Below, in pieces: positions 3,736-34,881 of a stretch of DNA of 57,970 nt. The DNA lies in the IMG/VR virus record IMGVR_UViG_3300008217_000010, positions 1 through 57,970 of that record; one strand, 5' to 3'. The translations under genes were made by a program, and so were the position numbers. Every line of letters starts with the position of its first letter. Within the stretch, counting starts at the first letter, position 1. Source of the stretch: a virus. Lineage: Duplodnaviria > Caudoviricetes. The notes under the pieces are model-generated. The model was not told the origin of the DNA and ran no database searches. It saw only the letters and a program-made list of their open reading frames with translations.

Positions 3736-3968
3736 ATGGTATATGATAAAGTCAGAGTCCAGAAACTAATTGACTCATTAATAGGTGATAAATGGAAGGA
3801 AGAACGCAATGTTATTGCTCAAGTAAGAAACCAAGAATTGAATTACCTAGAGCTCTAGTCGTAATGATGGAAACTGTCCAACATCATTATATAGAAGAAC
3901 CATCTAAACTTAAACAATATAAAGATATATTTGAAGAAATATCTCAAATTAGAGAGGTAGCAGAATGA
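3736..3968 (+). pseudogene. frameshifted hypothetical gene
   Basis: RBS+ATG at 3736. Adding 1 nt in the A-run near 3829 gives an ORF ending in an ATGA overlap with the next gene (span 233 nt = 3n-1). Confidence 0.55.
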
Positions 3969-4345
3969 GTCAATGGACTCATATAGCAGGTATAATACGA
4001 GTAGACTCTATTGGGATGAATGTAGGTAGAGATACTGAACAAGTTCTCAATATGATGATACAAGGATTAGCAGATATACCAACTGGAAGTGAAGGACCAC
4101 TTCATTATAGAGTATTAAATCAGCTTCAAGGAAATGCTCTATCTTGGGGTAATATTATCTTTTGGGATGATTTAAGAGACTTTGGTAGTGAGGATGATTT
4201 ATAAAAAGTAAAATATTGGTGGGAATACTTGCATCAAGAATTCAGATGGACCGAGATTTGCTATGCTCGACAGAGTGTACTTGAAATTCAAATTGAAGGT
4301 CAAGATGAACTTATAGTTTTGCACAATCCATCTATAGAGGAATAA
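3965..4345 (+). pseudogene. phage hypothetical gene (MSxWTH...GSEG) with in-frame TAA
   Basis: After TAA at 4202-4204 the frame stays open (KVKYWWEY...ARQSVLEIQIEG) to a TAATG overlap at 4343-4347. Confidence 0.65.
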
Positions 4346-4481
4346 TGCTTAATTGGTTCGTGTTAGGACTTAGTATCTTATCTATGTTAATAGCGTTATA
4401 CTCTGTTTATAAATTACGGAGAGCATTGCAAACACTTAAACGTATGCAAAGAACATATCATTGGAGGTCATACGAAGAAGA

Positions 4482-4697
4482 ATGACAACAGCAACTCTAG
4501 TTACTGAAAGACAGACTACAGACTATATATCTGAAAGGAGGTGCGAAGGATGTCCGCGATGTCAAGACCCTAATGCTGGATTCTGTAAGTTAAGCCATCC
4601 TAAATGGAAGAACTTACATCCTATATGTCGAAGGTGTGGGCATTGTGTGTTAAGAGGAAGCCATGCTGATAATACAGATGACTTAAAGGAGACGTAA
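4482..4697 (+). CDS. Cys-rich zinc-finger protein
   Basis: CEGCPRC...CRRCGHC. Confidence 0.65.
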   Translation: MTTATLVTERQTTDYISERRCEGCPRCQDPNAGFCKLSHPKWKNLHPICRRCGHCVLRGSHADNTDDLKET

Positions 4698-4812
4698 AAT
4701 GGACTTTAAATCTTTTATACTTGGAATAGTTATTGGATTTATTCTTGGATTTATTGCCTTTAGTGTAGCTTGGATAGCTATTATTGAAACTTTTAAATTA
4801 TAAGGAGAAAGA

Positions 4813-5316
4813 ATGGGACAATACTTTAAACATCTACGTGCTACTCCTTGGATTCCAAGCTTTGAGTGGATTGAAACTTCTGATGAAGCAGCAGATGTCA
4901 TCAATAAACCACATGAAGATTATCCAAATAAAATTCCTTTAACCAAATTAGCAATAGAGACTATACCTCCTTCAATTACGATATCTAACTTACTCCTTAC
5001 ACATATGAGAATATTTGTAGGTGAGGACTTTGCTGGATTGCTTCGTAATAAAAATGTAAGGGTAGGCAATCATACTCCTCCAAAATGGCAAGATGTAGTT
5101 AATCATATGGTTGAACTTCAAATGATTCATCGCCCTACATTAGAGCAAATAGGAGACGTTAGCCTTCAGTTAATAGAGAATTTGAAGGATTGGTATGAAG
5201 ACTTTGAAACCATCCATCCATTTGAAGATGGAAACGGTAGAGTTGGAGGTGTAACAATAGCAATCTATTCTCATACTTGGTATCCAGAAAAAGGATATTT
5301 AGTACCATTACAATAA
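4813..5316 (+). CDS. Fic/Doc-family protein
   Basis: HPFEDGNGR motif and upstream AGLLRNKNVRVG...PP flap. Confidence 0.9.
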   Translation: MGQYFKHLRATPWIPSFEWIETSDEAADVINKPHEDYPNKIPLTKLAIETIPPSITISNLLLTHMRIFVGEDFAGLLRNKNVRVGNHTPPKWQDVVNHMVELQMIHRPTLEQIGDVSLQLIENLKDWYEDFETIHPFEDGNGRVGGVTIAIYSHTWYPEKGYLVPLQ

Positions 5317-5324
5317 GGAGTGAT

Positions 5325-5630
5325 ATGCCAGTACCAGAGATAAATCCAAGTGTTTACTTAACTAAAGGTTGGTGTCAAGGAGCATTTGAGAAGATAATAG
5401 ATGGAAAAAGGTTTTATTGTTTCTTAGGTGCTGTTAACCAATCTTATATAGGAATTAGAAACTTTGAAGAAGGAAAAACACAATTTGACTTTAAGAGGAC
5501 TGCCAATGAAATATTAATTGAAAGAGGATTTCAAGACCCGTTAGTAACAGTTTGGCAAGATGCCATAGAAAGAACACAAGAAGAAGTAGTAGAACTTGCT
5601 TTAGAAATCGAAGAGAGATTAGGATTATGA
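5325..5630 (+). CDS. phage hypothetical protein (DUF6197-like)
   Basis: GWCQG...CFLGA...WQD..RTQEEV pattern, AAGGAG RBS. Confidence 0.6.
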   Translation: MPVPEINPSVYLTKGWCQGAFEKIIDGKRFYCFLGAVNQSYIGIRNFEEGKTQFDFKRTANEILIERGFQDPLVTVWQDAIERTQEEVVELALEIEERLGL

Positions 5631-5776
5631 GTATTTGGGGACTAGAGGAGATTGAAGGGATGGACTTAGGTAAATACAAGATGGCTACTATCTATCATAC
5701 CAAAGATGATGTGGACTTGATTCTAACGAGGATGGAAAGGCTTTTATTACAATCAAGACCACACAGAAAGAAGTAG
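5627..5776 (+). CDS. hypothetical protein
   Basis: ATGA overlap with the upstream gene. Confidence 0.5.
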   Translation: MSIWGLEEIEGMDLGKYKMATIYHTKDDVDLILTRMERLLLQSRPHRKK

Positions 5777-5814
5777 AGAAGGTAGGTGAAACACTTAAAT
5801 ACTACTCAGATAGA

Positions 5815-6036
5815 ATGGCACTATCCAAGTTTGCTTGGATATCTACTAAAGAAAGAGGTCATAAAGATAGAAATACTAAAAGTCTAGGAGATACATGGAA
5901 TATAGCTCATAGAAATAAGCAAATTGCTACAGCAAAGTTATATGGTACTACACTTGTAGTAATATCCTTTCCAGAGGATGAAAGTTTAAGGCATTGCTAC
6001 TTAAATCATGCCTACTTGAATTTCCAGAGGGCATAG
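5815..6036 (+). CDS. hypothetical protein
   Basis: ORF track. Confidence 0.5.
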   Translation: MALSKFAWISTKERGHKDRNTKSLGDTWNIAHRNKQIATAKLYGTTLVVISFPEDESLRHCYLNHAYLNFQRA

Positions 6037-7838: not shown

Positions 7839-7892
7839 TTTTTTGAAGTTGGGTTTTTGTGTTTAGTTAATAGCGAAAAAAGGAGTAACAAA

Positions 7893-9407
7893 TTGGAAAT
7901 TAAAGACCAAATAAAAGAAATGGTAAACTCTGGCTTTTCTGTGTTCTATGTATACACAGAAGATGAGGTTAGTGTCGAGAGACAACTAACTATGATGGCA
8001 GAAGAAAGAGAGGCAGGTATAGGTAGGTGGACTGTCTTAGGTGATAATCCTTTAGATGATTTTCTAGGGGCGGAGTTCCCAAATAACTTCTTTGTGATTT
8101 GCATCAACCCTCATTTGAATCTTGATTCTCCTGGAGTAATGCAGACCATAAAAGACCAAGCAGATAAATGGAAGGCAACGGACATTCATGTATTCTTGTT
8201 ATGCAATGATAAGAAAATACCACCAGAGGTTAATCGTAACCTCACATATATAGAGTGGGGACTTCCTGATAAAGATGAGCTTGGTGATAAGCTAGAGTTT
8301 GTTAGAGAATCTGCTCTAGATGAGCTACCTGACCTTCCAGTTTTTGACAATGGAGAAAAAACTGCTCTTGTTAAAGCAGCATTGGGGTTAACAAGTCAGC
8401 AGGCTGAAGATGCTTTTGCTCTTTCCTTGATACAAAATCAAGCGTTTGTGCCAAATGTCGTAACTAGAATTAAAGCAAACGAATATCTAAAAGCTGGATT
8501 GATGGAGCTTGAGGAACCTAAACCTTTTGAATCATTCAAGGGATACACAGAACTCCAAGAATATATGGTTCAATCTAAGTCAGCTTTCTATCAAGAGTCT
8601 AAGTATGGCTTATCTCCTCCTAAAGGCATACTGTTAACTGGAGTTCCAGGGGTAGGAAAGACTCTTGCTTCACAAGCAATCGCATCTATGTTCGGACTAA
8701 TGCTACTAAAGGTAGACCTTGGAAAGCTATTCGGAGAACTGGTAGGACAAACAGAGTCTAAAACCAGACAACTAATTGCCATAGCAGAAAGAATGGCACC
8801 TATCGTATTAAGATTCGATGAAATAGAGAAACAAATGGGTGGTATGGGAGTTAGCTCAGGTGACAGCGGAGTAAGTTCCAGAATCCTTGCTTCTCTATTA
8901 ACATGGATGCAAGAACGTACTGCTCCAGTCTATACAATAATGACTGCCAATGATGTAAGCAGATTACGACCAGAGATGCTCAGAAAAGGTAGGATAGATG
9001 AGATATTCTTTCTTGACCTGCCTGACAAACAAGAACGGTCAGATATATTTGAGTATCATCTTGAGCTTAGGGTTCCAGAGGTCAACTGGAGTGGATATGT
9101 TAACGACCTCAATGAAGCCCATAACAAGACTAAAGGATGGTCAGGTGCAGAGATTGAGCAAGTAGTAATACAGACTCTGAGACGTGCTGAACGAAGTGAT
9201 ATACATATTTCAGAGGATTTACAGTTCTTTATATTAGACCTTATAAATGAAATAGATAAGACCGTACCGTTATCCGTTATACGAAGGGAGGATATAGATG
9301 CAATAAGAAAATGGGCTGTAGATAATAATGCTCGATTAGCATCTAAGAATGAAATCATCGAGAAAGCCCAAATAGAGACTCGAAGAAAATTATCAATATC
9401 AAAATAA
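7893..9407 (+). CDS. Ycf46-type AAA+ ATPase
   Basis: GILLTGVPGVGKT, DLGKLFGELVGQTE, FDEIEK, TAND, LRKGRIDEIFFLDLP, preceded by a degenerate N-terminal AAA-like region. AAGGAG precedes TTG 7893. Confidence 0.85.
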   Translation: MEIKDQIKEMVNSGFSVFYVYTEDEVSVERQLTMMAEEREAGIGRWTVLGDNPLDDFLGAEFPNNFFVICINPHLNLDSPGVMQTIKDQADKWKATDIHVFLLCNDKKIPPEVNRNLTYIEWGLPDKDELGDKLEFVRESALDELPDLPVFDNGEKTALVKAALGLTSQQAEDAFALSLIQNQAFVPNVVTRIKANEYLKAGLMELEEPKPFESFKGYTELQEYMVQSKSAFYQESKYGLSPPKGILLTGVPGVGKTLASQAIASMFGLMLLKVDLGKLFGELVGQTESKTRQLIAIAERMAPIVLRFDEIEKQMGGMGVSSGDSGVSSRILASLLTWMQERTAPVYTIMTANDVSRLRPEMLRKGRIDEIFFLDLPDKQERSDIFEYHLELRVPEVNWSGYVNDLNEAHNKTKGWSGAEIEQVVIQTLRRAERSDIHISEDLQFFILDLINEIDKTVPLSVIRREDIDAIRKWAVDNNARLASKNEIIEKAQIETRRKLSISK

Positions 9408-9476: not shown

Positions 9477-9719
9477 ATGCAAGAGTTCTTTATATTCAGT
9501 TGGATAGATAATAATGTGACCTTGATAGAAGCTTATCCAGTACATAAAGGATTATCACGTCAATACTTTATAAACCATTGTATAAGTTGTACAGATATCA
9601 ATGGTTGGGCTTTAGTCTCTTCACCATCTAGGAATCAAGCTAAGAAATCTGCTTATATCAATTGGATTAACTCAACAGGAAAAGGATGGAACCGTTATTA
9701 TGACAACAAGCTCAGATGA
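9477..9719 (+). CDS. hypothetical protein
   Basis: GGAGG RBS downstream of the promoter. Confidence 0.55.
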   Translation: MQEFFIFSWIDNNVTLIEAYPVHKGLSRQYFINHCISCTDINGWALVSSPSRNQAKKSAYINWINSTGKGWNRYYDNKLR

Positions 9720-10071
9720 GCCAGATGTTGATTACGGATACACTCACTTAAGGGAAGAGTATCAAAAGTTAGAGGCTGACTCTGAGTTTGCTGAATTTCT
9801 CGTGTTGTTAACAGGAACTTATGATGAACCCGTGGACAGAACATTCGAGGATATTCAAAAGTTCAGAACAATAGCTACAATGGTATATACTAATAAGGAG
9901 ATAGAGTTTATAAGACATCTAGAGCCTGGACAAATCTGGACTACGGTAAATATGGGCAAGACCTTTATAGGTGTTGTTCAAAGAAAAGTTAACCGTACTG
10001 TATATCTAAGAGATAACTTAGGTAATGTATACCATGCAACAGCAGACCAATTCAGAGAGAGGTTACAATAA
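9700..10071 (+). CDS. hypothetical protein
   Basis: 123-aa ORF. Confidence 0.65.
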   Translation: MTTSSDEPDVDYGYTHLREEYQKLEADSEFAEFLVLLTGTYDEPVDRTFEDIQKFRTIATMVYTNKEIEFIRHLEPGQIWTTVNMGKTFIGVVQRKVNRTVYLRDNLGNVYHATADQFRERLQ

Positions 10072-10317
10072 ATAGCTACATTAGAAGATATCACGATATG
10101 TGATTCTTGCAAAGCAAGGTTATCAAATAAACATCTTCCTGGAGACTTGAGTTTTGAGGTGGACTCTGACAAATCCCTTTGGTGGAGATATAACTCTGGA
10201 ATTGGTAATGTCTTTGGTAGTATTGGAATGTTCGCTATCCATAATACTTGCTTAGATACTATGCGTGACAGGTTAAGGTCTGAGGGAAGAATGGAGCCGT
10301 TAGTCAGTATTTATTAG
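10072..10317 (+). pseudogene. zinc-ribbon gene with ATA at the start position, paralog of 25713-26026
   Basis: GAGAGG RBS then ATA GCT ACA. Open frame TICDSC...FAIHNTCLDTMRDRLR. Confidence 0.55.
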
Positions 10318-10544
10318 AGCTAGAAAGGTTAATTGTTCTAGGAGAAACTAAATCAGATTTGAGGAAAATGAGAATACAGTGATCACAAGTACCTGGCGTA
10401 AGAAACCACCGCATCCATCGACTAAGAAAAGACATGGTAATACTTTGTTGAAGGTTGACCCAAAACGAAAACGCAAGTTCTTAACACAAGAACAACTACG
10501 TGCCAAGCGACATCGAAAGAAGTTAAAAAGGAATAGAAATAAGA

Positions 10545-10720
10545 ATGAATGATGTAGAAACACATCCAAAGTATTGGGATTGTGAATGCGAGAATGATTA
10601 CATTCACGAGAAAGGAGTTCAAGATTATTGCTCTATTTGCAGAGTAATAGTAATGAGCAACCTGACAGCCGAGTCAATGAGTTAATCGAAAAAGGTATCT
10701 TATTAAGAGAGGATGAATAA
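10545..10720 (+). pseudogene. frameshifted phage gene (YWDCEC..YIH...QPDSR)
   Basis: The two halves are in different frames, joined near 10641. Span 176 nt, ending in a TAATG overlap. Confidence 0.6.
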
Positions 10721-11661
10721 TGGTTGAGACAACACACGCACCAGTTAGGGACAAAGAAAAGAGTATCTTTGTTGATGGGGTGTTATTTGATATTGACATC
10801 CATTGGTGGAAAGGTTGGACTAAGTTAGAGCTTGAGGATATAGATAAAGAGGAAGGTGAACTGCCTGCTATCTTTAAGCTTGGAACTAAACGGATACTTA
10901 ACCCAGAGGCGTTCAAAGACTTCTCTGTTATAGAGTCCAGGGCAAGGACGTTGGTTGACGACCTGTGCTTCCCTTTTATGATATCTACTGTGAGGTTTGT
11001 TCCCTTTGCCACACTACCTCAGTTAGTAGAAGAGTTAACTAAGCTACAGAAAGCATTTTACGCTTTCGTAGAACAGTTTGTCTTTTACTATGATGATAAC
11101 AAGTTGTCGTTTATGAATAGATATCCTAAGTACGCTCTTAAACTGAATAAAAAATATCCAGACACAATGGAAATTAGAGGTAAGTTCTACTTCAGTTGGA
11201 AGTTATTTGAAATGTCCATGCCAAAGGAAATAAAAGCTGAATTCTTATCTGACTCAGAAAGAGAAAGGCTACAGAAACTCTTTACTGAAAGTCAAGATAA
11301 GGTTAACAGCCAATTAGAGGGTTGGGTTGACCGCGTTGGTATGGCAATGAGAAAGGAAATTGGTTTAGTATGCAAGAACATGAACGACTCATTAGAGAAA
11401 GGAAAAGTGATACGTGAATCAACTCTGGAAAGGACTCGTGAGACTATCAAACGCTTACGTTCCATGAATTTTATTGGTGACCCTCAAGTAGAGGACATGC
11501 TCTCTGATTTAGAACGGAACGTTCCTGGTAACTTTGATAGAGATAATGCTTTAGTGATGGCTCCATTTAAGGGAACACTCCAGGCTATCATGGCAGAGGC
11601 AGGAGACCTTACAGATATAACAACTTCAACTGGAGAATACAAACGAAAGTTTAGGTTATAA
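10720..11661 (+). CDS. DUF3150-like protein
   Basis: DIHWWKG..KL, LGTKRIL, FVP, YP...EIRGKF.F.W, L..MNF.GD pattern. Confidence 0.7.
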   Translation: MVETTHAPVRDKEKSIFVDGVLFDIDIHWWKGWTKLELEDIDKEEGELPAIFKLGTKRILNPEAFKDFSVIESRARTLVDDLCFPFMISTVRFVPFATLPQLVEELTKLQKAFYAFVEQFVFYYDDNKLSFMNRYPKYALKLNKKYPDTMEIRGKFYFSWKLFEMSMPKEIKAEFLSDSERERLQKLFTESQDKVNSQLEGWVDRVGMAMRKEIGLVCKNMNDSLEKGKVIRESTLERTRETIKRLRSMNFIGDPQVEDMLSDLERNVPGNFDRDNALVMAPFKGTLQAIMAEAGDLTDITTSTGEYKRKFRL

Positions 11662-22227: not shown

Positions 22228-22229
22228 GG

Positions 22230-24430: not shown

Positions 24431-24611
24431 ACTTTTTTGTGCTTTTGTGTTACATCAACCAGTTGTTGAAGTCCAAATAAAAAGAGAGAACGAAGATGAA
24501 ACATGGTACTCTTATAGATGTTACAGATTATGTTGTAAGTATCCTGGTGATATTGGTTGGTTCCCGTTGCTTTGGCGCAAGATGTATGGTAGGGTATGGC
24601 GAGGCAGCTAG
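24420..24611 (+). CDS. hypothetical protein
   Basis: AAGGAG RBS. Confidence 0.45.
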   Translation: MLRRLFCAFVLHQPVVEVQIKRENEDETWYSYRCYRLCCKYPGDIGWFPLLWRKMYGRVWRGS

Positions 24612-24627
24612 GGCCAGGCGTTCAGGT

Positions 24628-24727
24628 ATAGAATCAGGGCCACAGAATCGTTTTTACGGGCATTGTTTCCCGTTTCAGGTAGTCAGGGCCAGGTTAGGGA
24701 TTCTGACCCCCTAGAATCAATTTAGGT
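24628..24727 (+). repeat. dispersed non-coding element, copy A
   Basis: GGGCCACAGAATCGTTTTT...TAGAATCAATTTAGG, with motifs shared by 34055-34158 and 39025-39118. Confidence 0.6.
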
Positions 24728-24746
24728 GAAAGCATAGGAGATTAAT

Positions 24747-25331: not shown

Positions 25332-25531
25332 TGTGGCTAGTATTCGCTATGCTACGTGGACACGAAAAGCGATGGGATGAGGATGCACCAGATAGAGTTG
25401 GACTTGTATCTATCGTACTATATGGCATACACTTTGGATACTGTCCAATCTATGAAACAGAAGATGAAGCAGAGTATTTCTTTCCAGGTGTACTAAGAGC
25501 CAAGCTACCAATGACTATAGTAGGAGAGTGA
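25331..25531 (+). CDS. hypothetical protein
   Basis: TAATG coupling. Confidence 0.6.
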   Translation: MWLVFAMLRGHEKRWDEDAPDRVGLVSIVLYGIHFGYCPIYETEDEAEYFFPGVLRAKLPMTIVGE

Positions 25532-25713
25532 CGATGGAAACCTCAAGCCAGCTTGAACAAGATATTTTAAGAGGATTATTTACACTCAAAGAATTTCCTG
25601 ACCTTCCAAAAACAGAATGTACTACGTTCGATGAAGAACAGAAACCAAAGAACTTGTCCATCTATCGTATTGGAAGTAACGTTATACGTATTGATATCAA
25701 GGAGCCTAAGTAA
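25528..25713 (+). CDS. hypothetical protein
   Basis: ORF track, coupled to neighbours. Confidence 0.6.
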   Translation: MTMETSSQLEQDILRGLFTLKEFPDLPKTECTTFDEEQKPKNLSIYRIGSNVIRIDIKEPK

Positions 25714-26026
25714 TGAAACTCTGGTTCGATATCAATACCAAGGAACAAGTAGCTCCAAACTCACATAGACCAAATCTGATAACTATGTTGAGTTGACAAT
25801 TTGTGATAAGTGTGGTTGGGTTAGTGAGCAAGACAACATCATTAACGAGTATGAACTAGCTGTTAACCTTAAATTCGACTTACATAGAAGTTGTGTCGAT
25901 ACAGTTAGAGATAGATTCAGGATGAGCATTGGACTAAAGACCAACGCAGATATTGACAAGATGGTTAAAAATGGAAGATATCTTAATTCTATCCCATCAC
26001 AGAAAAAAGACTATAAATCGTTGTAG
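25713..26026 (+). pseudogene. frameshifted zinc-ribbon gene
   Basis: TAATG start MKLWFD... A 1-nt deletion near 25768 separates it from TICDKC...HRSC (span 314 nt). Confidence 0.55.
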
Positions 26027-26906
26027 GTTCAAAGCATACCTACATTATGACCGACGAAAGAGAAAAGTTGAAACTGATATCAATTTGATATTCGGTACAG
26101 CTTTTCATACTGCTCTAGATGTGTACTACAATCGCAAACGTAAAATGGAGTTTGACGATTTACGTCAGGTCTTTGAGTTAGCGATGGATGTACCTGTACC
26201 AGATGATAGGTCACAACTCGAACAAGAATTATCAACATGGACAAAGATTGGTAGTCAAATGCTTTATAACTACCATTTAATAACTCAGGCTAATGAACAC
26301 TTTGAAGTTCTTGAAACTGAGCGTCCTTTTTATCTATGTTTAGACGAAGATGGACAGATTATTTGCGATGCTGTCACTTCTAAAGAGAACATACCAAGTA
26401 ATGCTTTCTTTATTCTGGCTGGAAAGATTGACCTCACAATTGATATGGGTGGTGATATATACTTTGTTGACCACAAGACTACAGCGTTCAACAAAGAGAA
26501 GTTTGAAGAACACTATCGCCTTGATGAGCAATTGCTCGACTATAGTATCTTTGGCCGCTGGCTCTATGGTGAACGTTTCAAAGGTACTCTTGTTAATGGC
26601 CTCAACAAGAAACTCGATTCACCAGAGGGACTTATATTCAGAATGTGGATGATGTATAGTGATGAAGAAATTGACTATGCTATTTCATCCTATATGGACA
26701 CAGCACAAGAACATTACATACTAAGACAGCAACCTCACTTGTTACAGCAACGTACACAAGACTTTGATTGCAACAGATGTACTTATGAACCTGTCAGTAC
26801 AGCACTAAGAAAGGGCGACGATTGGGAGACAGTCCTAGAACTGTACTACGAGGATATAGAAGAAATGGATTGGGAGAATGAAGGTGTCCAAGCAAATATG
26901 CAGTAG
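25971..26906 (+). CDS. PD-(D/E)XK exonuclease (RecB/Cas4-like)
   Basis: GTAFHTAL, E..F, GKIDL, VDHKT, QL.DY and C-terminal CNRC. Confidence 0.88.
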   Translation: MEDILILSHHRKKTINRCRFKAYLHYDRRKRKVETDINLIFGTAFHTALDVYYNRKRKMEFDDLRQVFELAMDVPVPDDRSQLEQELSTWTKIGSQMLYNYHLITQANEHFEVLETERPFYLCLDEDGQIICDAVTSKENIPSNAFFILAGKIDLTIDMGGDIYFVDHKTTAFNKEKFEEHYRLDEQLLDYSIFGRWLYGERFKGTLVNGLNKKLDSPEGLIFRMWMMYSDEEIDYAISSYMDTAQEHYILRQQPHLLQQRTQDFDCNRCTYEPVSTALRKGDDWETVLELYYEDIEEMDWENEGVQANMQ

Positions 26907-27063
26907 ACCAGCTAAGTTCTTCTTTTTCAACAGAGGTAAGAAGGGATTGGAGTCAGTAGCATTATGCGAAGATTGTAAAAATGCGGCGTCACCAGAAATA
27001 CAAAAGCAAATCAAAGACTTGGTATCATCATTTCCACATCCATGTGTAATTGAAGTAGAGTAG
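26878..27063 (+). CDS. small zinc-finger protein
   Basis: CSRPA...LCEDC. Confidence 0.55.
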   Translation: MKVSKQICSRPAKFFFFNRGKKGLESVALCEDCKNAASPEIQKQIKDLVSSFPHPCVIEVE

Positions 27064-27067
27064 GCAA

Positions 27068-27970
27068 ATGACAACAACACCAAAGCCTGTGGTAGTTAAA
27101 AAGAGAGCTATTGTACCAATACCAGATAACATTAAGGCGGAGTATAAAATTGAAGGCATTGCACAACGCTCCAGGTTTATACATATTCTGTTATCTGCGC
27201 CAGGTGGACAAGGTAAGACTACGTTCTTTGGAACAACAGCAAAGCAAATACTAGATGATAATGGTGAAGGTAATATTCCTGTTCCTAATCTTTTAGTCAT
27301 AGAGTTCGACCCATTTGGTGAAGATACTCTAATAGATATGAAGGTTGGATATGATATTGTCAGGCCAAAGTCGATTCAAGAATTAGAGTACTTAGTTAAG
27401 TTCTTACATTCGTCTGGTGCTGACCAATACGATGTCATAGCGTTAGATGCTTATAATAAGATGTGTGAAATCTTATATGATGCGATTCTAGAATACGCAA
27501 AGACATTACCACAAAGAACACCACATGACCTTGAGATTTTAGAGCTTAGGGATTACAACAGGTTCTATAAACGACTTAGAGTATTAAATGAAAGTATCCT
27601 GTCGTTGAAGAAGCATGTAATCTTTACGTGCATCGCAGCACTCAAGGATAAGCCATCTGAACTGTGGAAAGAAAAACAAGATAGAGCACAGATTCAATCG
27701 TTAATGGTTGATGGTAAGATGGCACATATCTTATCAACACAGTTTTCGTTACACGGAATCATGGAAAGACGCGGTGCTGGTTCTAACATTCATGTAGACA
27801 CAAAGTTTACTGAATTTAACAGTGAATCAAAGACTCGTTTCCGAATCAAGGGAACGTTTGAAGATATGACATTTCCAGACTTACTAACGGAAATGAATCT
27901 TAACGACCCTAGCTTTAGACGTATTAAATGGAAGCATGACGAAAAGGGGTTCTTACCAGAGTTAGTCTAA
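27068..27970 (+). CDS. AAA_24 / Sak4-like recombination ATPase
   Basis: APGGQGKTT, YDVIALD, HVIFTC, next to the exonuclease. Confidence 0.8.
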   Translation: MTTTPKPVVVKKRAIVPIPDNIKAEYKIEGIAQRSRFIHILLSAPGGQGKTTFFGTTAKQILDDNGEGNIPVPNLLVIEFDPFGEDTLIDMKVGYDIVRPKSIQELEYLVKFLHSSGADQYDVIALDAYNKMCEILYDAILEYAKTLPQRTPHDLEILELRDYNRFYKRLRVLNESILSLKKHVIFTCIAALKDKPSELWKEKQDRAQIQSLMVDGKMAHILSTQFSLHGIMERRGAGSNIHVDTKFTEFNSESKTRFRIKGTFEDMTFPDLLTEMNLNDPSFRRIKWKHDEKGFLPELV

Positions 27971-28305
27971 TGGCTTACGAACTTAAGATTTGGCTCAGAA
28001 ATCTTATACGTGCTAATAGAGGACCTGTTGCCTCTAGGTTACATGTAATCTTTGACGACTACGGTAACTTTCAACTTAGACGTAAACAAGAGGATGATGA
28101 AAAGGACAGAGGCTACATGTTAGATTGTACATTCGAGCATGTAGAACAAATAGAGTTTGGTCACCGTCTTGAGATAACTTCATTCTCCTTAGGAAAGTTA
28201 AGAGAACAGATAAAGGAACAAGGTGACGACCTAGACTATCAAGATTACGAATCGTGGGAGAAGAGGTGTAAAAATAGGTGGGCATTTGAAGAACACGATA
28301 ACTAA
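27970..28305 (+). CDS. hypothetical protein
   Basis: TAATG coupling. Confidence 0.65.
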   Translation: MAYELKIWLRNLIRANRGPVASRLHVIFDDYGNFQLRRKQEDDEKDRGYMLDCTFEHVEQIEFGHRLEITSFSLGKLREQIKEQGDDLDYQDYESWEKRCKNRWAFEEHDN

Positions 28306-28666
28306 ATGGAAAAAGAAATTAGACAGGAAGATAGAAAAGAAAAGGCATTGGCTAGCTAGAGTCTATAGGTCTATATTCTTTAAGTCAGCTTTATATCACG
28401 CATCAAGACTACATTTTAGGAGATTCTTAAACATGGCACATCCAGACTTGTATGTAGATGGCAACCCAAACTCAGTCATGGACTTTGACCAAGTTAAATG
28501 GTTGGATTTCAGGTGTCCTAGATGCAATTCAATCTTTACAGTTACTATCAAGAAAGACGATATACCCGTAGAGTCACGTTGTATGAGTTGTCTCAACCAT
28601 TACATATTTCCCAATCCTGATGAAGAAGTTGAAGAGGTTAGAGGGACGATGGAGAACACTGTATAA
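28286..28666 (+). CDS. zinc-ribbon protein
   Basis: CPRC...CMSC. Confidence 0.65.
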   Translation: MKNTITKWKKKLDRKIEKKRHWLARVYRSIFFKSALYHASRLHFRRFLNMAHPDLYVDGNPNSVMDFDQVKWLDFRCPRCNSIFTVTIKKDDIPVESRCMSCLNHYIFPNPDEEVEEVRGTMENTV

Positions 28667-29379
28667 TGGCTACCATTCCTTTAATGGCTATCTCTGGTTC
28701 AGAACCTATGCAAATAAAAAGAGACTGTGCTGAGTTTTCATATATAGATGAGAACATGGTATATCCTGATTACAAGATATGGTCTAAGCTAGACTATACT
28801 GTAGATATTGCAAGAGCACAGGTAGAAGATTTAGTTAGAAATAAAACAGATGGTACACATATTGCAGAGGAACTTAGTAACCTACAAGGTGATGTGCGTA
28901 TCTTTCTTATGGAAGATTGGTTAGGTAGAGATAGATACGGAAAGGTAACATTGCCTGGTGGGAGATTCAACGACACCAACTACATACATATAGTTAATCT
29001 TATAACAGCAGCTTGTTTGGCTACAGGTACTATATGGGTGTATGCCGCTAATCAGAAAGCCACTTGCAATTTGCTCAAACAGTGGAACAATGAATTCTTC
29101 CAACGAGAGGTTCACAAATCGTTAATGGTTCGCCCTAGAAAGGCAGAGGCAATTTTCACTCTAGACTTTACTCATGAGAATCAAATTTGGTGGTTAACAG
29201 ACATACCTGGCTTAAATATAGGATTTACTAGAGCCGAAGCAATGATAGACCATGCAGGCTCTTTAATTAATCTGTTTATAATGGACAGGAATCAACTTTC
29301 TGCTATTCCAGGTATCGGGCCTAGTATCGCTGATAAATTCAGAACATTTATAGATAAAGGTATTCAAAAAGTTGGATAA
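28666..29379 (+). CDS. ERCC4/XPF-fold protein with tandem HhH, catalytic motif degenerate
   Basis: SEP...DY...ARAQVEDL in place of REx...D...ERKxxxDL, then DIPGLNIG and LSAIPGIGPSIA. Confidence 0.65.
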   Translation: MATIPLMAISGSEPMQIKRDCAEFSYIDENMVYPDYKIWSKLDYTVDIARAQVEDLVRNKTDGTHIAEELSNLQGDVRIFLMEDWLGRDRYGKVTLPGGRFNDTNYIHIVNLITAACLATGTIWVYAANQKATCNLLKQWNNEFFQREVHKSLMVRPRKAEAIFTLDFTHENQIWWLTDIPGLNIGFTRAEAMIDHAGSLINLFIMDRNQLSAIPGIGPSIADKFRTFIDKGIQKVG

Positions 29380-29690
29380 TTGGGAAAGAATAAATCCTGA
29401 TGGGATAAGTCATACAGTCAAATGATGGATATTTTAGCGGCTGACTTTGAAAAACAGTACACTTGTGCTCCACTACCTACTCAATATGATGTCAAACAAG
29501 TTCTTAATCTAGAAGTCACATCAATGCTACCTAATGAGGTTCCTCAACAAAGGACAATTGAAAAGACTTTAGACTGAATGTTGAATATAACTTTAACATA
29601 GGTCGTCAGGTGTCAAGTGAGTTTGAGATATACTTTCCTGCTGAACAGATTATGGTTAACTGTAGAGTAGGATTTGATATGGAGGAATAA
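29380..29690 (+). pseudogene. decayed hypothetical gene
   Basis: In-frame TGA at 29398-29400 and frameshift in an A-run near 29563 (span 311 nt). Confidence 0.45.
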
Positions 29691-29944
29691 CCTATAGAGA
29701 CTTACTACGATTCACCAGATTAGCTATGGAAGAAGTTAGTAAGCCAATCAATTCTAATAGAGTAAACCTAGTAGACAGAGCTACTTTCGTCCCTCCACAG
29801 TCACCAGCAAAATTACCTCTGTACGTTTTGACAGGAATAGTAATCCTAGTGTTAGAGGTAATAGACCTGATAAAGTAGAATTAAACGACATTGAACCACA
29901 GAAGCCTTTACTTCGTAAAATGAGAATCAAGCAAAAGGAGTAGC

Positions 29945-32269
29945 ATGTTAGAGCCAATTCCATTTACAGAGAACTCGCAAATAGTTTGGGAACGTAGATA
30001 TCTTACTAAAGATGATAATGGTAATCCTATAGAGACAATAGAAGAACGTATATGGTCTATGTGTATGGCTGTAGCTATGGCAGAAAAGATTGCTGATGGT
30101 TTTAATTCTCCTGAAACTATAGAATCATGGGCCAAGCGTTTTTACAATGAATTATTTGTACCACAAAAGTTTATGCCTAACTCTCCTACAGTTAGGAATG
30201 CTGGCAGAGAAGGGGTTGTAGGTGGATTACAGGCGTGCGTTGTAGCAAGTCCAGAAGATAACCTTCATTCTATTTACCAAGTTTTGCATGATTGGGGGTT
30301 AACTGAAAAATATGGAGCAGGTATCGGTGGCTCATTCGATGCCATTAGAGAACGTGGCTCCCACATTGGAACTATTCACGGCGAAGCTCTAGGGCCAGTA
30401 GCAGTCATGAAGATTTACTCTGAATCATCTAAATGGATTACCCAAGGTGTATTTAGAGAAGGCGCACATATGGCCGTCCTTAATGTAGACCATCCAGATA
30501 TCAGACAGTTCATTCATTGTAAAGATGAGTGTAAAGGCCCAACTGATATTCTTTTTAACTTTAACATATCTGTAGCGATTACAGATGCTTTCATGGATGC
30601 AGTCAGAAAGAACGAGACTTGGAATTTAATATCGAGAACTAAGTCAAAGTCAGTAGTAGAGCAGATTAGTGCAAGAAACTTGTGGGAAGAAATCTGCGAC
30701 TCTGCTTGGAAAACTGGCGACCCAGGCTGTATATTTATTGACCGAATTAGAGAAACAGAGCCTAACCCTTATCTTGGTAAGATAATGTCAACTAACCCAT
30801 GCGGTGAAGAACCATTAGAGAATTATGGTTCTTGTAATTTAGGTAGTATTAATCTTATGAAATTCGCTGACTATCATAACGACGGATATCCTATTGGAGT
30901 TAAATGGGAAGAACTAAGTAAGACAATTAACTTAGCTATTCGGTTCTTAGATAACGTTATCACAATTAACGAGTTCCCTCCAGAGGTTCCAAAGTTAAAG
31001 GAACTGAATATTGAGACTCGTCGTATTGGTCTTGGTGTAATGGGTTGGCATGACTTGTTAGTTATACTAGGAATTCCATATGAGTCAGATAAGGCAGTTC
31101 ATTTAGCTGAAACACTATCAGCATTTATTACTGAACACGCATGGAAAGCATCCGAAAAGCTAGGACAAGAAAAAGGAAACTTTCCTGGATACAAAAACTC
31201 TCGTGTGAGGGAACAACATGCACTCTCGGGCGCACGGAATAGTAACGTTACTACTATTGCTCCTACTGGCACTATATCTATTATCCTGGGTGCTTCTAGT
31301 GGTATTGAGCCTTATCCATATCTGGTCGCAGAACGTCAGGCACTTTGGTCAAAGGGTAAGCCAGGTGCTATTCTACTAGAGATACCAGAGGTTTTAAAGG
31401 CTAGACTCTCTGACCTTAATATTGAAATTGAACAAGTATTTGGACAAAAATCTAGTCTACCATTTGACGACAAGTTCGTTATTGAGTTCCTACCAGAAGA
31501 AGAGCGAAAGCTATACAGAACTGCTAATGAGATAGATGCCATCTGGCATGTAAGGCACTTAGCAGCTTGGCAAAAATTCATAACTAATGGAGTATCTAAA
31601 ACTATTAACATGGCTTTTGGAGTTTCTCCAGATGATGTTAATAGAGCTATGTGGCACGCTTATGAAATGAAGTGCAAAGCTGTCACAATATATCGAGACG
31701 GTTCCAAAGATACACAGATTCTAACCAAATCTGGTACTACAAGTGAAACAGATACACAGTCTACATTCTTAATAGATGTACCTGTAAACCCTATAACTCA
31801 AAAACGACCACAGAGAGTAGATGGATATACAGAGGGTGTAGAGACTGGTCACGGAAAGATTTACATCACAGTTAACAGCATAGAAGAACAGGTATTCGAA
31901 ATCTTTTCCACAGTTGGTAAAACTGGCAGTTGCGACGAGGCTCAAGTCAATGCACTCACAAGAATGTGTTCTCTTTCTCTAAGGTCTGGTATTAATCCAA
32001 TGAAAATTGTAGAACAATTAAGAGGAATATCTTGTTGTCCTGCGTGGTTTGAAGGTCGTCAAATACTTAGTATACCAGATGCAATCGCATTTCAATTAAA
32101 CAAGCACTTGGAACCTGAGCAGCAAGCACTTATGAATCAGTACAAAGACGAGACAGAAGGCCCTGATTCCAAACGTGTCAAAAGAAAGTGCCAGGAATGT
32201 GGTCAACCTGTGGTATACTCTGAGGGGTGTGTAAATTGCCCAGCTTGCGGATGGAACAAATGTGACTAA
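29945..32269 (+). CDS. nrdJ: class II (adenosylcobalamin-dependent) ribonucleotide reductase
   Basis: PNSPT, TNPCGEEPL, CNLGSINL, TIAPTGTIS, SKTIN, YRDGS, C-terminal TSCPD-like domain and zinc ribbon. No beta subunit gene seen. Confidence 0.95.
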   Translation: MLEPIPFTENSQIVWERRYLTKDDNGNPIETIEERIWSMCMAVAMAEKIADGFNSPETIESWAKRFYNELFVPQKFMPNSPTVRNAGREGVVGGLQACVVASPEDNLHSIYQVLHDWGLTEKYGAGIGGSFDAIRERGSHIGTIHGEALGPVAVMKIYSESSKWITQGVFREGAHMAVLNVDHPDIRQFIHCKDECKGPTDILFNFNISVAITDAFMDAVRKNETWNLISRTKSKSVVEQISARNLWEEICDSAWKTGDPGCIFIDRIRETEPNPYLGKIMSTNPCGEEPLENYGSCNLGSINLMKFADYHNDGYPIGVKWEELSKTINLAIRFLDNVITINEFPPEVPKLKELNIETRRIGLGVMGWHDLLVILGIPYESDKAVHLAETLSAFITEHAWKASEKLGQEKGNFPGYKNSRVREQHALSGARNSNVTTIAPTGTISIILGASSGIEPYPYLVAERQALWSKGKPGAILLEIPEVLKARLSDLNIEIEQVFGQKSSLPFDDKFVIEFLPEEERKLYRTANEIDAIWHVRHLAAWQKFITNGVSKTINMAFGVSPDDVNRAMWHAYEMKCKAVTIYRDGSKDTQILTKSGTTSETDTQSTFLIDVPVNPITQKRPQRVDGYTEGVETGHGKIYITVNSIEEQVFEIFSTVGKTGSCDEAQVNALTRMCSLSLRSGINPMKIVEQLRGISCCPAWFEGRQILSIPDAIAFQLNKHLEPEQQALMNQYKDETEGPDSKRVKRKCQECGQPVVYSEGCVNCPACGWNKCD

Positions 32270-32412
32270 ATGGGATACATCGAAATATGGATTTGCAGAG
32301 TTTTAACTAGTCCACTTTTGTTTGATTACTTTACATCACGTTGGCATGACTTTTATTACTGGCTAGGAAGTGGGAATTTCTGGCCTAATCTAACATATAC
32401 TTGTGAACCAGG

Positions 32413-32847
32413 ATGGTGGTTAATATGAAGGTAGGATTAGCAGGGCACACATACGAAGTAAATGTCTATGACGGTGACGGCACAGAGGTCGAAAACATAA
32501 CCTTTGTGATGCGTAACAATCCTAAAGAAAAGTATCCAGGTAACGAGTTTGCCTTTAAAGGTACTAATTGTCAGGAAGTCTTGCGTGTTCTAATTGATAG
32601 AATCACTTATCTACAGAATCAGCGTAGATGCCAAGAGAACGAAATTATGCTTCATCACCTACGTCACACTCTTTATCTTTTTGAATGGCGTCATGCTAAA
32701 CAAATAGGTGTTGAGTTCCCACAAGCAATAATGGATAGAAATAACGGATTAATACCTATGGATGTAGAAAACTTTGAAACTTGTCGAAATTGTGGACATT
32801 GGTTCTGTGAGTTCACACCATGCCGTGAAGGAGTGAAACATGACTAA
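32413..32847 (+). CDS. Acb2/Tad1-hairpin-like protein with C-terminal Cys cluster
   Basis: GTNCQEVLRVLIDRITYLQ...CQEN....HL...L..FE.R pattern. Confidence 0.6.
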   Translation: MVVNMKVGLAGHTYEVNVYDGDGTEVENITFVMRNNPKEKYPGNEFAFKGTNCQEVLRVLIDRITYLQNQRRCQENEIMLHHLRHTLYLFEWRHAKQIGVEFPQAIMDRNNGLIPMDVENFETCRNCGHWFCEFTPCREGVKHD

Positions 32848-33006
32848 AGAAGTAGGAGATAGATGCTTACTTGTTACAGCAGATTTAAGTCGTTTAAGCG
32901 AAAATGCCACCTTTATTTATAACGGGACAATACAAAAGAAAGGTGGATATCCAAACTTATTATTCTGTACTGAGTGTGGAGTAGCATACATAAAACCAAG
33001 CTACTA

Positions 33007-33240
33007 ATGCTAATTAAAGTAGAAGAACTAGATGCTTGTCCAGAATGTAAAAAAGACTGGATGAAGTGTTCTTGTTGCTACTGTGGGTGTTGCGATCGAT
33101 GGGCTGGCCAAGGGTATCCTCATATTTATTGGTGTAAAGATTGCGAGAAGCATATACTTAGTAGGGAACGCAGAGACTATCACAATCTAACATGGTTTGC
33201 ACAATTCGGAACAGACTGCCCTAATTCGGAGAAGTTATGA
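33007..33240 (+). CDS. Cys-rich protein
   Basis: CPEC...CSCCYCGCC...CKDC. Confidence 0.6.
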   Translation: MLIKVEELDACPECKKDWMKCSCCYCGCCDRWAGQGYPHIYWCKDCEKHILSRERRDYHNLTWFAQFGTDCPNSEKL

Positions 33241-33618
33241 AAGGGTTAATAGCTGCTGGACTACTGCATCACGAAGAAGGTTTTGCTGGCAGTAAAAAAA
33301 CTTTTTGAGACAAAAGAAGATTTTCTATCAGCTATTATTCCATATAACGTATACTTCTACGATGGATACTATCGTTCTTTTGATTGTATAGAGCTTAAAG
33401 CAGAAGAGTACGATATTGAACCATACATAAATGCTATTCAAGATGGTTTTCTCAGGAATTGTGTCTGTACAATATGGGAAGATTATGAAGAGGATAATGG
33501 GCGTAGACACCATTGGGAACAGACAGAAAGCACTAAAAGTGGTGGGACACCTGCTTGGACATTAGACTACTATGACCTTCATCGTGAAACACACAAGTTT
33601 CGCAGGATTGGTTGTTGA
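33237..33618 (+). pseudogene. frameshifted hypothetical gene
   Basis: ATGA-coupled start, extra A in the A7 run at 33294-33300 (span 382 nt). Confidence 0.55.
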
Positions 33619-33797
33619 ATAAAAAGAAAAAGATTAAATCAACAGTAGATGTAATAAAGTACAGTCTACGTAAGGGATTGTGTGACCACGGTGAACCTTT
33701 GGCTTTCTCAACATTCTATAACGGTGTTAGAATTCAATATCAGTTCATAATCTGCAAGCAACACAGGACTGAAACATGGGAACACCATCTAAAGTAA
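33612..33797 (+). CDS. hypothetical protein
   Basis: ORF track. Confidence 0.45.
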   Translation: MLNKKKKIKSTVDVIKYSLRKGLCDHGEPLAFSTFYNGVRIQYQFIICKQHRTETWEHHLK

Positions 33798-34054
33798 ATA
33801 AACAACACGTAATAGAGTTTAAGACCCTCTACGACCTACAGTAATAAAGAGATTTACTCTATGGTTAGTAAAGTGGGACAGCAAAATTAAGTTAGACACC
33901 TATTATAAAGAAGGTTCAGTTCCTGCTTGCTTTAGTCATGAACTAAAGGAACCAAATATAGGTGTAAACTTTGAATCAGAGATAGTCTTAGTTAATGGTT
34001 ATAAAGAATTGGGACTACATCAACTGAATATATTTTTCTGATTCATGCCTAGAT

Positions 34055-34158
34055 AGCCTAAAAACGATTGTGGGGCCAATTGTGGGGTTTTACATCTGAC
34101 CTAACCACATTGGTCATTTCAGACCCTAGCACCCCTACAATTTCGATTCTGTGGCCCA
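34055..34158 (-). repeat. dispersed non-coding element, copy B (where the two arms converge)
   Basis: Reverse strand GGGCCACAGAATCGAAATTGT...AACCCC...AATCGTTTTTAGGC. Confidence 0.65.
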
Positions 34159-34354
34159 GTTTTTAGCCTCTGGCAACCGCTGTAGTTCTTGTTTCTGAAT
34201 CAGTTTCTATAAATACTGCTTGTCTATTTATATGAGACCTTAGAGCAGAAACTGTATTGGCTGGAACTACAACTCCTTGAGGGTTGTAGTCTCTGGTATT
34301 TCCACATCTTCGATAGACATTTCCTAGTGAATCCATATTATGGCTGTCTATTAG

Positions 34355-34881
34355 TTATTTCGGCTTCACGTTCTTCTTTTGTTTGCCATAGAATTGCATC
34401 AGTTGTGTATCTATAAGAACGTTTACTGCTTCGTTACATACTGTTCGCGCCATTATTAGTTCAGCTTTCTCCTCATCAGCTTTTGTAGCAGTCTCAATGT
34501 CACTACTCATAGAACCAACTTCTAATATATTAAGCGCAACCTCTTCTGTTATCCCTACATTCCCTCGTTTAAGACCTTGTAGACGAACAAGTCTATCACA
34601 CTCAGTCTTTGCCTCCTGTACTATCTTGACTTTATCGCAGCAATCGGCGACTTGCAGTAGGTCTATTTTCGATGGAATACCGATTGGATTTAACGGGCTG
34701 TAATAAATCTCGACGCAACCTATATCCCCAATTCCCCAAAGGTCGCCATGATTAAATCATCGCCTGTGAAATCCTCGAAGGCCCCGCCACCAGAGGCTAA
34801 CCCCATAACCTCTCCAGTGGTTTTGTTGTAAAAGAGTCTGCGCGGTTTCGTGATTGAAATTGCTTTGTTATTAGGCGTCAT
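34355..34881 (-). pseudogene. frameshifted tail-region gene
   Basis: MTPNNK...LFYNKTTGEV. Adding one G in the G-run near 34727 extends the frame by about 125 codons (span 527 nt). Confidence 0.55.

Follow-up and report, generated by a model that had tools for sequence, protein, structure and literature searches.

Probable pseudogenes in auxiliary loci of a wild marine tailed phage whose virion genes are whole

Introduction

Phage genomes are usually treated as streamlined, viruses are usually expected to lose dead DNA within a short time, and broken genes in viruses assembled from metagenomes are routinely written off as assembly error or recoding. The IMG/VR virus record IMGVR_UViG_3300008217_000010 (Duplodnaviria; Caudoviricetes), a linear sequence of 57,970 nt that is analyzed here in its entirety (hereafter, the window), raises the question of what such breaks represent. 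The original prediction, made from the sequence alone, placed 14 lesions, i.e., single-base insertions or deletions (indels), in-frame stop codons and one lost start codon, between positions 3736 and 34881. It read them as the drift of accessory genes in a phage that is still selected for its virion and core functions, possibly as a persistent carrier-state element or under deamination pressure. All of the claimed bases are present in the window. We report that the lesions are genuine DNA and that the disruption is real; further, we consider it probable (roughly 0.78) that they mark genuine pseudogenes, specific to this lineage, that arose by relaxed selection and drift in a clonal, wild marine tailed phage.

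Results

The window could be compared to a collinear sister lineage, found with thyX as the query and consisting of three assemblies (G1, G2 and L013) that are mutually 99.96-99.98% identical. The G1 contig (57,345 nt) has 40 genes in common with the window, at ~30-77% protein identity, and the two share ~65-70% identity at the nucleotide level, with synonymous sites saturated. A more distant phage relative, L004, has an intact thyX.

In the window, thyX (flavin-dependent thymidylate synthase; 21502-22227, plus strand; Pfam Thy1, E 1e-35) is a pseudogene. The gene is among the best conserved between the two lineages, with 66% identity to G1 compared to 39-58% for the helicase, ribonucleotide reductase (RNR), capsid and most others. 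Its frame is interrupted by a TAG at 22147-22149 that aligns to a TGG (Trp) codon of G1 (Ala in L004), and the G1 alignment continues beyond it to 22224, which bears out the claim of an in-frame stop. It also has neither a start codon of its own nor the ~44 N-terminal residues found in G1 and L004, the first in-frame start being TTG 21556; this 5' truncation, absent from the original prediction, is an additional lesion. The sister lineage has a different break in the same gene, that is, an in-frame TGA in place of the second (catalytic) Arg codon of the RHR motif (CGC in the window), and this TGA is found in all three sister assemblies (L007:6608-6622; G1 contig 25608-25622). The adjoining dCTP deaminase gene is intact, and no gene of the ThyA family was found in the present parts of G000, G001 and G003, records that are incomplete except G003.

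Directly upstream of thyX, positions 21305-21513 (plus strand) hold the remnant of a gene homologous to that of a 150-aa G1 protein, with only ~67 codons left from its 5' end. The tblastn alignment of the G1 protein runs in frame 2 through a TGA at 21377-21379 and switches to frame 1 thereafter (joint E 8e-6 for segments of 26 and 30 bits), with the frameshift falling near 21406-21416 and the coding-potential change point at 21416. Both the TGA and the frameshift that had been claimed at ~21408 are thus borne out, though weakly. The 3' part of this remnant is deleted and the rest joins thyX directly at about codon 45, the deletion at the junction amounting to over 100 codons.

The deoxynucleoside monophosphate (dNMP) kinase gene (22563-23124, plus strand; phrog_139, Pfam DNMK) lies in three frames, 3, then 2, then 1, with Viterbi switches at 22714 and 22770. 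Its pieces match positions 84-132 (E 1.8e-12) and 152-262 (E 5e-25) of the phrog_139 profile; two fragments in different frames thus match one family, as expected from the claimed frameshifts at 22713 (a 1-nt loss at 22713/22714) and ~22756 (here located to ~22756-22770). The claimed LGTE>LETE change agrees with the one homologue compared, the kinase of Streptomyces phage Asten: codon 22780 is GAA, so that the LQxxGTE motif reads ETE in the window and GTE, with Gly, in Asten. A PDB sequence search with the kinase fragment returned a weak match to 1dek (E 0.064) in the C-terminal part only, which does not cover the Gly of LQxxGTE.

Two genes further upstream provide similar evidence. At 3965-4345 (plus strand) lies a pseudogene of the MSQWTH family, a conserved family of unknown function, with a premature TAA at 4202-4204. 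A read-through query (3965-4342, TAA taken as X) matched 19 proteins, one of which is the phage's own 79-aa truncation; the remaining 18 homologues are 119-203 aa long, cover 65-100% of the query and mostly align across the stop, where they have Glu, Asp, Gln or Pro. The motifs MSQWTH (N-terminal), GSEGP and DLRD are invariant among the homologues, and within the near-invariant GDLRD motif codon 4166 of the window is GAT (Asp), while nine of the ten aligned homologues have Gly and one has Ala. That is, both the premature stop and the WGD>WDD change of the original prediction hold. The read-through frame terminates in a TAATG coupling with the next open reading frame (ORF) at 4345.

The second gene encodes a small CxxC protein (10072-10317, plus strand) and has ATA as its first codon (TAATA for the expected TAATG). 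The Met of a near-identical strain protein (P0021; 83 aa, 99% identity, one contig) falls exactly at this ATA, as does that of a more distant homologue (P0024; 103 aa, 44% identity), in line with the claim of a missing start codon. Since two homologues start with Met there and none fuses the gene with the upstream ORF, the change is a start-codon loss, still polymorphic in that one contig keeps the ATG. TAA 10069 as an internal stop of a longer gene was considered and rejected, as a read-through of 9700-10314 found no fused homologue. At the other end of the gene, the window has a TAG at 10315 where P0021 has Gln-Ser. Separately, the 81-aa protein matches repeated modules of very long proteins (e.g., 12 stretches in the 1,798-aa P0022), and the proteins of 10072-10314 and 25769-26023 (plus strand) have in common a CDxC ... 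H..C.DT.RDR motif, a match of 16 residues with E 0.004-0.006 within the window.

Overall, family homology on both sides of the break was found for thyX, the dNMP kinase and the MSQWTH family and at the start of the 10072 gene. Seven of the 14 claimed lesions are therefore confirmed by homology (4202 TAA, 10072 ATA, 21377 TGA, the ~21408 shift, 22147 TAG, and the 22713 and ~22756 shifts). Five are backed by coding potential only (3829, 10641, 29398, 29563 and 33297) and two are unsupported (25768 and 34727); at these sites, as over 29398-29808, homology on both sides was not found.

The lesions recur in independently obtained DNA. The stretch 20500-30400 is present, whole or in part, in 20 public runs from 19 studies (2016-2024), all of them DNA runs and most of them bulk marine metagenomes; 14 of the 20 contain at least half of its words, and one is flagged as a possible source of the window. 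We compared contigs of four runs, X2, X6 (2016), X12 (2024, viral-fraction) and X17 (2019), to window positions 14900-34899, a stretch that leaves out 3829, 4202, 10072 and 10641. The X2 contig (30,264 nt, depth 18.4) spans the whole stretch with 12 substitutions and two gaps, and is identical to the window at all ten claimed sites within it (21377, 21408, 22147, 22713, 22756, 25768, 29398, 29563, 33297 and 34727). The wild-type form is likewise absent from the contigs of the other runs where they cover a site, i.e., 22713, 22756 and 25768 in X12, 33297 in X17 and 34727 in X6 (in X17, where five of 30 bins are without depth, only the covered parts count). Two joints in X17, with skips of 12,647 and 168 nt, were set aside because their sides are only 21-24 letters long and probably come from other organisms. 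A further metagenome contig of the same strain (L011; 4,495 nt) corresponds to window 22948-27442 with three mismatches and no gap, and the compared contigs are mostly at least 99% identical. Finally, the exact truncated products recur on public contigs: the 79-aa product of the 4202 TAA on 26 + 1, the C-terminal 100 aa of the kinase on 27, and fragments at 29422 of 51 and 50 aa on 16 and 21, respectively. The longest contig with such a product measures 59,018 nt.

The strains also reveal that the decay is ongoing, as they carry different extra lesions. In the kinase gene of X12, an A is inserted behind 22713 and another is missing at 22718. Adding only the X12 A behind 22713 joins frames 3 and 2, and since the indel arrangements differ in this way, the most economical history would be two different single-base losses from one intact ancestor, besides the second shift that is shared. 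Within 23833-24430 (plus strand), a 42-aa ORF of X6 and X17 combines TGG>TGA at 23865 with the loss of one base at 23929 (a fusion of two ORFs by the 23929 deletion was ruled out, as no fusion results), and X2 has a 1-nt deletion at 24191 that shortens a 160-aa ORF with a weak phosphoheptose-isomerase-like match to 117 aa. A TGG>TGA of X12 at 16029 falls in codon 21 of the longest helicase ORF (from TTG 15967); the true start of the helicase probably lies downstream of it, because homology to G1 begins only at 16081.

Altogether, substitutions distinguish the strains at 24 places over 20 kb, of which 21 are transitions and three transversions, and indels at seven. Five of the substitutions lie in pseudogene segments and one is intergenic, and those in ORFs regarded as intact are nine nonsynonymous, seven synonymous and two nonsense. 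The differences seen in a single run (n=15) comprise eight GC>AT, four AT>GC and three transversions; the sample is small, and most of the differences are unpolarised.

With the lesions established as real, their distribution can be assessed. We used two sets, 12 lesions that are confirmed or well supported and the seven confirmed by homology or strains. The structural block (tail genes, tape measure, capsid-protease fusion and portal; 35390-57034, minus strand) served as the contrast region; we detected no lesion in it, and its Viterbi path shows only ordinary gene ends and one frame change in a tail assembly chaperone pair (41696-42372, minus strand). All genes of the block that G1 shares align to it uninterrupted. 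The chaperone frame change is a programmed frameshift and no lesion, because G1 has it too: the window segments 41696-41932 and 41974-42372 correspond to G1 47113-47370 and 47283-47747, in two frames in each genome, upstream of tape-measure-region genes of 214 and 634 aa. Accordingly, none of the 12 lesions falls in 35300-57034 (21.7 kb, 37.5% of the window; P = 0.004).

The lesions are also clustered. In the 12-lesion set, eight pairs lie less than 1 kb apart against 2.26 expected (P = 0.005), and in the seven-lesion set six against 0.73 (P = 0.001). Several loci have been hit more than once, namely the remnant plus thyX (deletion, TGA, frameshift and TAG), the kinase (two frameshifts and Gly>Glu), the MSQWTH-family gene (TAA and Gly>Asp) and 29.4-29.9 kb (up to three frameshifts). 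Such clustering speaks against errors, which would be spread over the sequence; a dead gene, by contrast, goes on taking hits.

By comparison, 38 of the 40 genes common with G1 are uninterrupted, and the RNR, helicase, RuvB-like and AAA ATPases, exonuclease, methyltransferase and dCTP deaminase are all intact and conserved with G1. The same detector found six startless coding stretches of at least 7 bits in the window and one in G1 (the chaperone shift and the contig end being excluded), and the sole detector lesion of G1 falls in thyX as well. The long genes named in the original prediction are annotated by PHROG/Pfam as it had claimed and are intact: AAA ATPase (7857-9407), DinG-type helicase (15967-17775, plus strand), RNR (29945-32269), tape measure (39134-41038, minus strand), capsid-protease fusion (49136-51823, minus strand) and portal (52604-54199, minus strand). 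Its argument that intact long ORFs speak against random error has P = 0.02 at face value but is partly circular, since a long gene with a lesion ceases to be a long ORF. The multi-hit clustering, the independent assemblies and the near-absence of lesions in G1 provide better arguments for selectivity. The tests of clustering, of the structural block and of the genes and lesions compared with G1 are independent of ORF length. With these, the claim that lesions lie in dispensable or auxiliary loci (thyX, dNMP kinase, MSQWTH-family gene and small ORFans) while the core is whole is upheld.

For the remaining sites, we relied on a 3-periodic Markov model of coding potential trained on the 27 open frames of at least 200 codons of this genome, in which the score per codon is about +0.1 to +0.3 bits for true frames and -0.5 to -1 for wrong ones. 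Among 438 true shadow frames, 13 reach at least 5 bits, four at least 10 bits and one at least 13 bits. The best change points lie 0-14 nt from the positions originally given. No Pfam or PHROG family matched the ORFan fragments at 3652-3965, 10352-10549, 10598-10717, 21305-21472, 25468-26023, 29401-29940, 32974-33794 and 34166-35397.

A decayed ORFan between an HhH gene and the RNR gene (29380-29943, plus strand; no family match) runs through frames 1, 3, 2 and 1, with a strong shift at 29563-29568 and weaker ones at 29679 and 29808 (segments of +18, +13.9, +3.9 and +9.1 bits). The claimed frameshift at 29563 is well supported by coding potential (+18 and +13.9 bits on its two sides) but has no homologue behind it; the TGA at 29398 as an in-frame stop is weakly supported on the same basis, again with no homologue. 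The extra frame changes near 29679 and 29808 are likely according to the model. The ORFan at 33237-33618 (plus strand) opens in frame 3 with an ATG at 33237 in ATGA coupling, its body lies in frame 1, and a candidate shift falls in an A7 run (33293-33299). Here, the change point is 33288, the upstream and downstream parts score +5.5 and +19.4 bits, and neither X2 nor X17 differs from the window. Alternatively, the ORF would start at TTG 33283, for which the Shine-Dalgarno motif is badly spaced, and the claimed shift at 33297 is therefore best described as moderately supported, with the run and the coupled start in its favor but no homologue.

Further upstream, an ORFan pair in frames 1 and 3 with a 67-nt overlap (3733-3968, plus strand; no Pfam or PHROG match) may be joined by a single-base frameshift near 3829-3837. 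The change point fits best at 3837, with 14.3 bits for the two frames together and about -6 bits for frame 3 from its ATG at 3792 to 3837; the frameshift claimed at 3829 thus has moderate support from coding potential but none from homologues in the Pfam/PHROG searches. A frameshift from frame 2 to frame 1 near 5712 (5627-6036, plus strand), absent from the original prediction, is likely under the model: the Viterbi path switches at 5712/5713, the 34 startless codons that follow (5713-5814) score +13.0 bits, and the ATG at 5815 is without a Shine-Dalgarno motif. The frameshift claimed at 10641 (10545-10720, plus strand) is weaker. The change point is 10650, the downstream part scores 6.8 bits and the frame-2 tail closes in TAATG at 10718-10722, but the ORF at 10545-10685 is already complete, a phrog_18262 match is restricted to the frame-3 part, and no homologue crosses the shift. 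As a side observation, a coding-like frame (14039-14440, plus strand; +21.5 bits) that encodes a charged low-complexity peptide extends beyond TAG 14243, with the next start at 14324 and -4.6 bits for the ORF ahead of the TAG; the TAG may thus be one more in-frame stop, unless the signal is an artefact of composition.

Two claimed frameshifts were not sustained. At 25768 (25713-26026, plus strand), the part ahead of the site, in frame 3, scores -4.0 bits, X12 and L011 carry the same sequence, and an ORF starting at TTG 25793 is the simpler description. The site 34727 lies within a minus-strand ORFan (34341-34881) with a coding-like open frame, 34756-34358, in which the first start codon comes only at 34510. 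Here, a score of -2.7 bits was obtained for the upstream frame (-f2), and a two-frame model is no better than a one-frame model; a large protein search found no relatives of 34358-34756. At 34403, the window is without one G that X2, X6 and X12 carry, which alters the C-terminal ~20 codons; the Viterbi path switches from -f1 to -f3 at 34402/34403 (+8.4 bits in the other frame vs. -3.4).

The original prediction had also pointed out that several repairs restore exact TAATG or ATGA coupling. This was seen at 4345 (TAATG), at 10718-10722 (TAATG) and in the ATGA start at 33237, and helps to recognise a lost frame, albeit as a soft criterion, because such overlaps couple a large share of the neighbouring genes of the plus-strand block.

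The general features of the genome are as follows. CheckV estimates completeness at 67%, the G+C content is 37-43%, and a plus-strand block from 1 to ~34.1 kb faces a minus-strand block at ~34.2-57 kb. The segment 34001-36000, where these two divergent blocks of genes meet, stands out with 48.6% G+C compared to ~38% elsewhere; it contains minus-strand ORFans without homologues, and the window-specific 34403 deletion also falls there. The PHROG/Pfam annotation further includes a RuvB-like ATPase, Fic/DOC, a DNA methyltransferase, dCTP deaminase and an exonuclease. In the early block, genes for a Fic/DOC family protein (4813-5316) and a nucleoside 2-deoxyribosyltransferase-like protein (19476-19916; match below the Pfam cut-off), both on the plus strand, are intact. 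The capsid-protease protein (895 aa, 58% identical to its G1 counterpart) has protease and scaffold-like regions joined to a major-capsid region (phrog_29592, phrog_133 and phrog_4523).

A nucleotide search of the window gave no match to cultured phages, and the closest cultured relatives share only 26-29% protein identity, in the helicase and the capsid. Among viral contigs, the AAA ATPase found no relatives, RNR found one distant 5.6-kb contig, and an exact 34-mer adjoining 4202 had no match; a portal search in G001-G003 gave no match either. The metagenome scan matched G1-type contigs, L011 and one distant contig (L014). The analysis makes no use of the 5.6-kb contig and L014.

Discussion

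We infer that relaxed selection and drift in a clonal population are the cause of the pattern. Under this explanation, auxiliary genes (thyX, dNMP kinase, MSQWTH-family gene, CxxC gene and several ORFans) would have come under relaxed selection, ordinary point mutations and single-base indels would have disabled them, and the dead genes would have gathered further hits because deletion of dead DNA lags; virion genes and the replication genes common with the sister lineage would have stayed under purifying selection throughout. The broken genes would be expected to yield no functional product. Signs of secondary decay, i.e., the losses of motif Gly residues, multiple hits per gene and strain-specific lesions, are consistent with this sequence of events.

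It is important to note that several observations weigh against this explanation. The X2 contig is near-identical to the window and possibly its own source, and the X12 variant at 22713 comes from one contig with a depth of 4. The runs were compared as assembled Logan contigs, which drop rare variants, and intact alleles may thus persist at low frequency, P0021 being an example of one that survives. The homology behind 21377 and 21408 is weak, and five of the claimed lesions, as well as the additional proposed ones, come solely from a model trained on this genome. The nine nonsynonymous against seven synonymous substitutions in ORFs regarded as intact represent only mild constraint on the short time scale. 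Low-level read-through or slippage (e.g., at the A7 run 33293-33299) may rescue some products, and a second thymidylate synthase may sit in the missing part of the genome, although none is found in the present part.

Alternatively, the inactivation of thyX, and perhaps of the dNMP kinase, could itself be advantageous, which would make the breaks adaptive; possible drivers include a changed nucleotide strategy, a host that supplies thymidine differently, the use of a non-canonical base, or evasion of host defences by which these enzymes are sensed. That a gene as well conserved as thyX (66%) is broken independently in both lineages, by a TAG at the Trp column and a 5' truncation in the window and by a TGA in RHR in G1, G2 and L013, could reflect selection for loss and not mere relaxation. 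The intact dCTP deaminase next to it and the lack of ThyA in the present parts of G000, G001 and G003 also fit. However, two independent hits are also expected under simple relaxation, most of the other broken genes are unrelated ORFans, the distant relative L004 retains an intact thyX, and no base-modification genes were identified. We thus regard selection for loss as unlikely, albeit worth keeping in mind. With the same reserve, it is intriguing to consider that the loss of thyX in both lineages of this abundant and persistent phage, together with the shedding of the kinase and early ORFans in one of them, is an adaptive rewiring of nucleotide metabolism caught in the act. A host switch or a changed base composition of the DNA might drive it, as might a defence of the nucleotide-sensing or deaminase type that the phage escapes.

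The direction of the point lesions was the basis for the suggestion of deamination pressure, with a host or phage cytosine deaminase, or uracil-rich replication, driving C>T and G>A changes. Every polarised point lesion is indeed GC>AT (22147 TGG>TAG, 10072 ATG>ATA, 10315 CAG>TAG, 4166 GGT>GAT and 22780 GGA>GAA), the CGN>TGA of G1 fits too, and 21 of the 24 strain differences are transitions. But these positions were picked as lesions and hence give a biased spectrum: the transition routes to stops are all GC>AT, Gly>Asp/Glu is G>A by definition, and the polarisation of the thyX Trp codon is based on one relative, L004 having Ala. Further, deamination makes neither the single-base indels, which account for at least eight of the lesions, nor the deletion of more than 100 codons. 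Bacteria are generally reported to have a mutation bias toward AT, and the 2:1 GC>AT excess among the single-run differences (~3:1 per site at 39% G+C) is within their range. G1, from the same collections, is almost free of lesions, and no deaminase was seen besides the dCTP deaminase. APOBEC3 acting on retroviruses is the familiar case of deaminase-driven G>A hypermutation, and it resembles ours in the polarised G>A or C>T lesions, including Trp>stop and Gly>Asp/Glu. It differs in that here indels dominate, the strain spectrum leans only mildly toward GC>AT and essential genes are spared. Therefore, the observation on the direction of change stands, whereas deamination as the driving force appears improbable.

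The carrier-state reading belongs to a broader class in which the element is defective or has been domesticated, for instance as a prophage in decay or a remnant that forms particles and keeps only virion genes. In its favor, the structural block is intact while early-region genes decay, and most of the runs that contain the phage are bulk marine metagenomes. Defective (cryptic) prophages, in which point mutations and indels inactivate unneeded phage genes, show the same kinds of lesion, but here virion genes and most replication genes are intact, the replication genes are conserved with G1, and the early region is present in the 2024 viral-fraction run (X12). No integrase or flanking host DNA was seen within the window, and the lineage persists at an identity of at least 99% across 19 studies. 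We consider this explanation very improbable.

It is even less probable that the genes still work through recoding, that is, by stop reassignment or suppression combined with programmed frameshifts. The frames do remain coding-like beyond each break, both kinase shifts are in the -1 direction with the first adjoining an A5 run, and 33297 sits in its A7 run (slippery heptamers were judged by eye only). In crAss-like and Lak phages, where TAG or TGA is reassigned, in-frame stops likewise occur inside otherwise conserved genes. In contrast, three different stops are in frame here and all of them are ordinary terminators as well (TAA 43, TAG 11 and TGA 5 of the 59 listed genes); the residues they align with are Trp in thyX, the catalytic Arg in G1 and, for the MSQWTH family, any of Glu, Asp, Gln and Pro, and they affect early auxiliary rather than late genes. 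ARAGORN found no tRNA genes in the window, a 67%-complete contig, and no Rfam family was found in it. Given that there is neither one recurrent, avoided stop nor a single aligned residue nor a suppressor tRNA, stop-codon reassignment is rejected. Programmed frameshifting at the candidate shifts fails on conservation, as none has a counterpart in G1 whereas the true chaperone shift does; X12 alters the supposed slippery site at 22713-22718, and thyX is, in addition, without its N-terminus and start codon.

Lastly, sequencing or assembly error, e.g., homopolymer or consensus artefacts in the window contig, has next to nothing left in its favor besides the A7 run at 33297 and the 34403 deletion, which is in the window only and may be an exception; it is largely refuted by the unchanged sites in X2, X6, X12, X17 and L011, by truncated products recurring on 16-27 contigs, by the position of most indel sites outside homopolymers and by the clustering of the lesions.

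Hence, we favor the hypothesis of gene decay by relaxed selection and drift, a kind of event that is already known and is here unusually well documented for a virus. Gene calls split by indels are a recognised annotation problem in phage pangenomes, and in the Rephine.r report (PMC8351571) they are detected by aligning N- and C-terminal pieces to one intact homologue, as the kinase and thyX pieces do in the window. Compared to the cases described there, about 12 or more lesions in seven or more genes of one genome, several of them hit repeatedly, are found here; they are fixed across samples and years, include nonsense and start-codon changes, and involve no intron or homing endonuclease. In prokaryotes, pseudogenes build up after ecological shifts or bottlenecks, according to the Pseudofinder report (PMC9336565); the clonal lineage and the multi-hit dead genes that precede deletion are similar, the difference being that the carrier is a virus with a genome of ~58 kb or more. 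Among the titles listed in a limited search of the literature, none describes a wild phage with such a lesion load or with convergent loss of thyX.

In conclusion, these results have implications for how phage genomes are read and for the biology of marine phages. Gene callers report the fragments as separate small proteins, which are already public on dozens of contigs, and caution in annotation is called for. A lineage that stably carries multi-hit pseudogenes in 19 studies over eight years offers a natural measure of which marine phage genes are dispensable, and a means to gauge how long a phage genome retains dead DNA before deleting it. Finally, because the sister lineage lost thyX independently, whether these phages need to encode thymidylate synthesis themselves can be tested directly.

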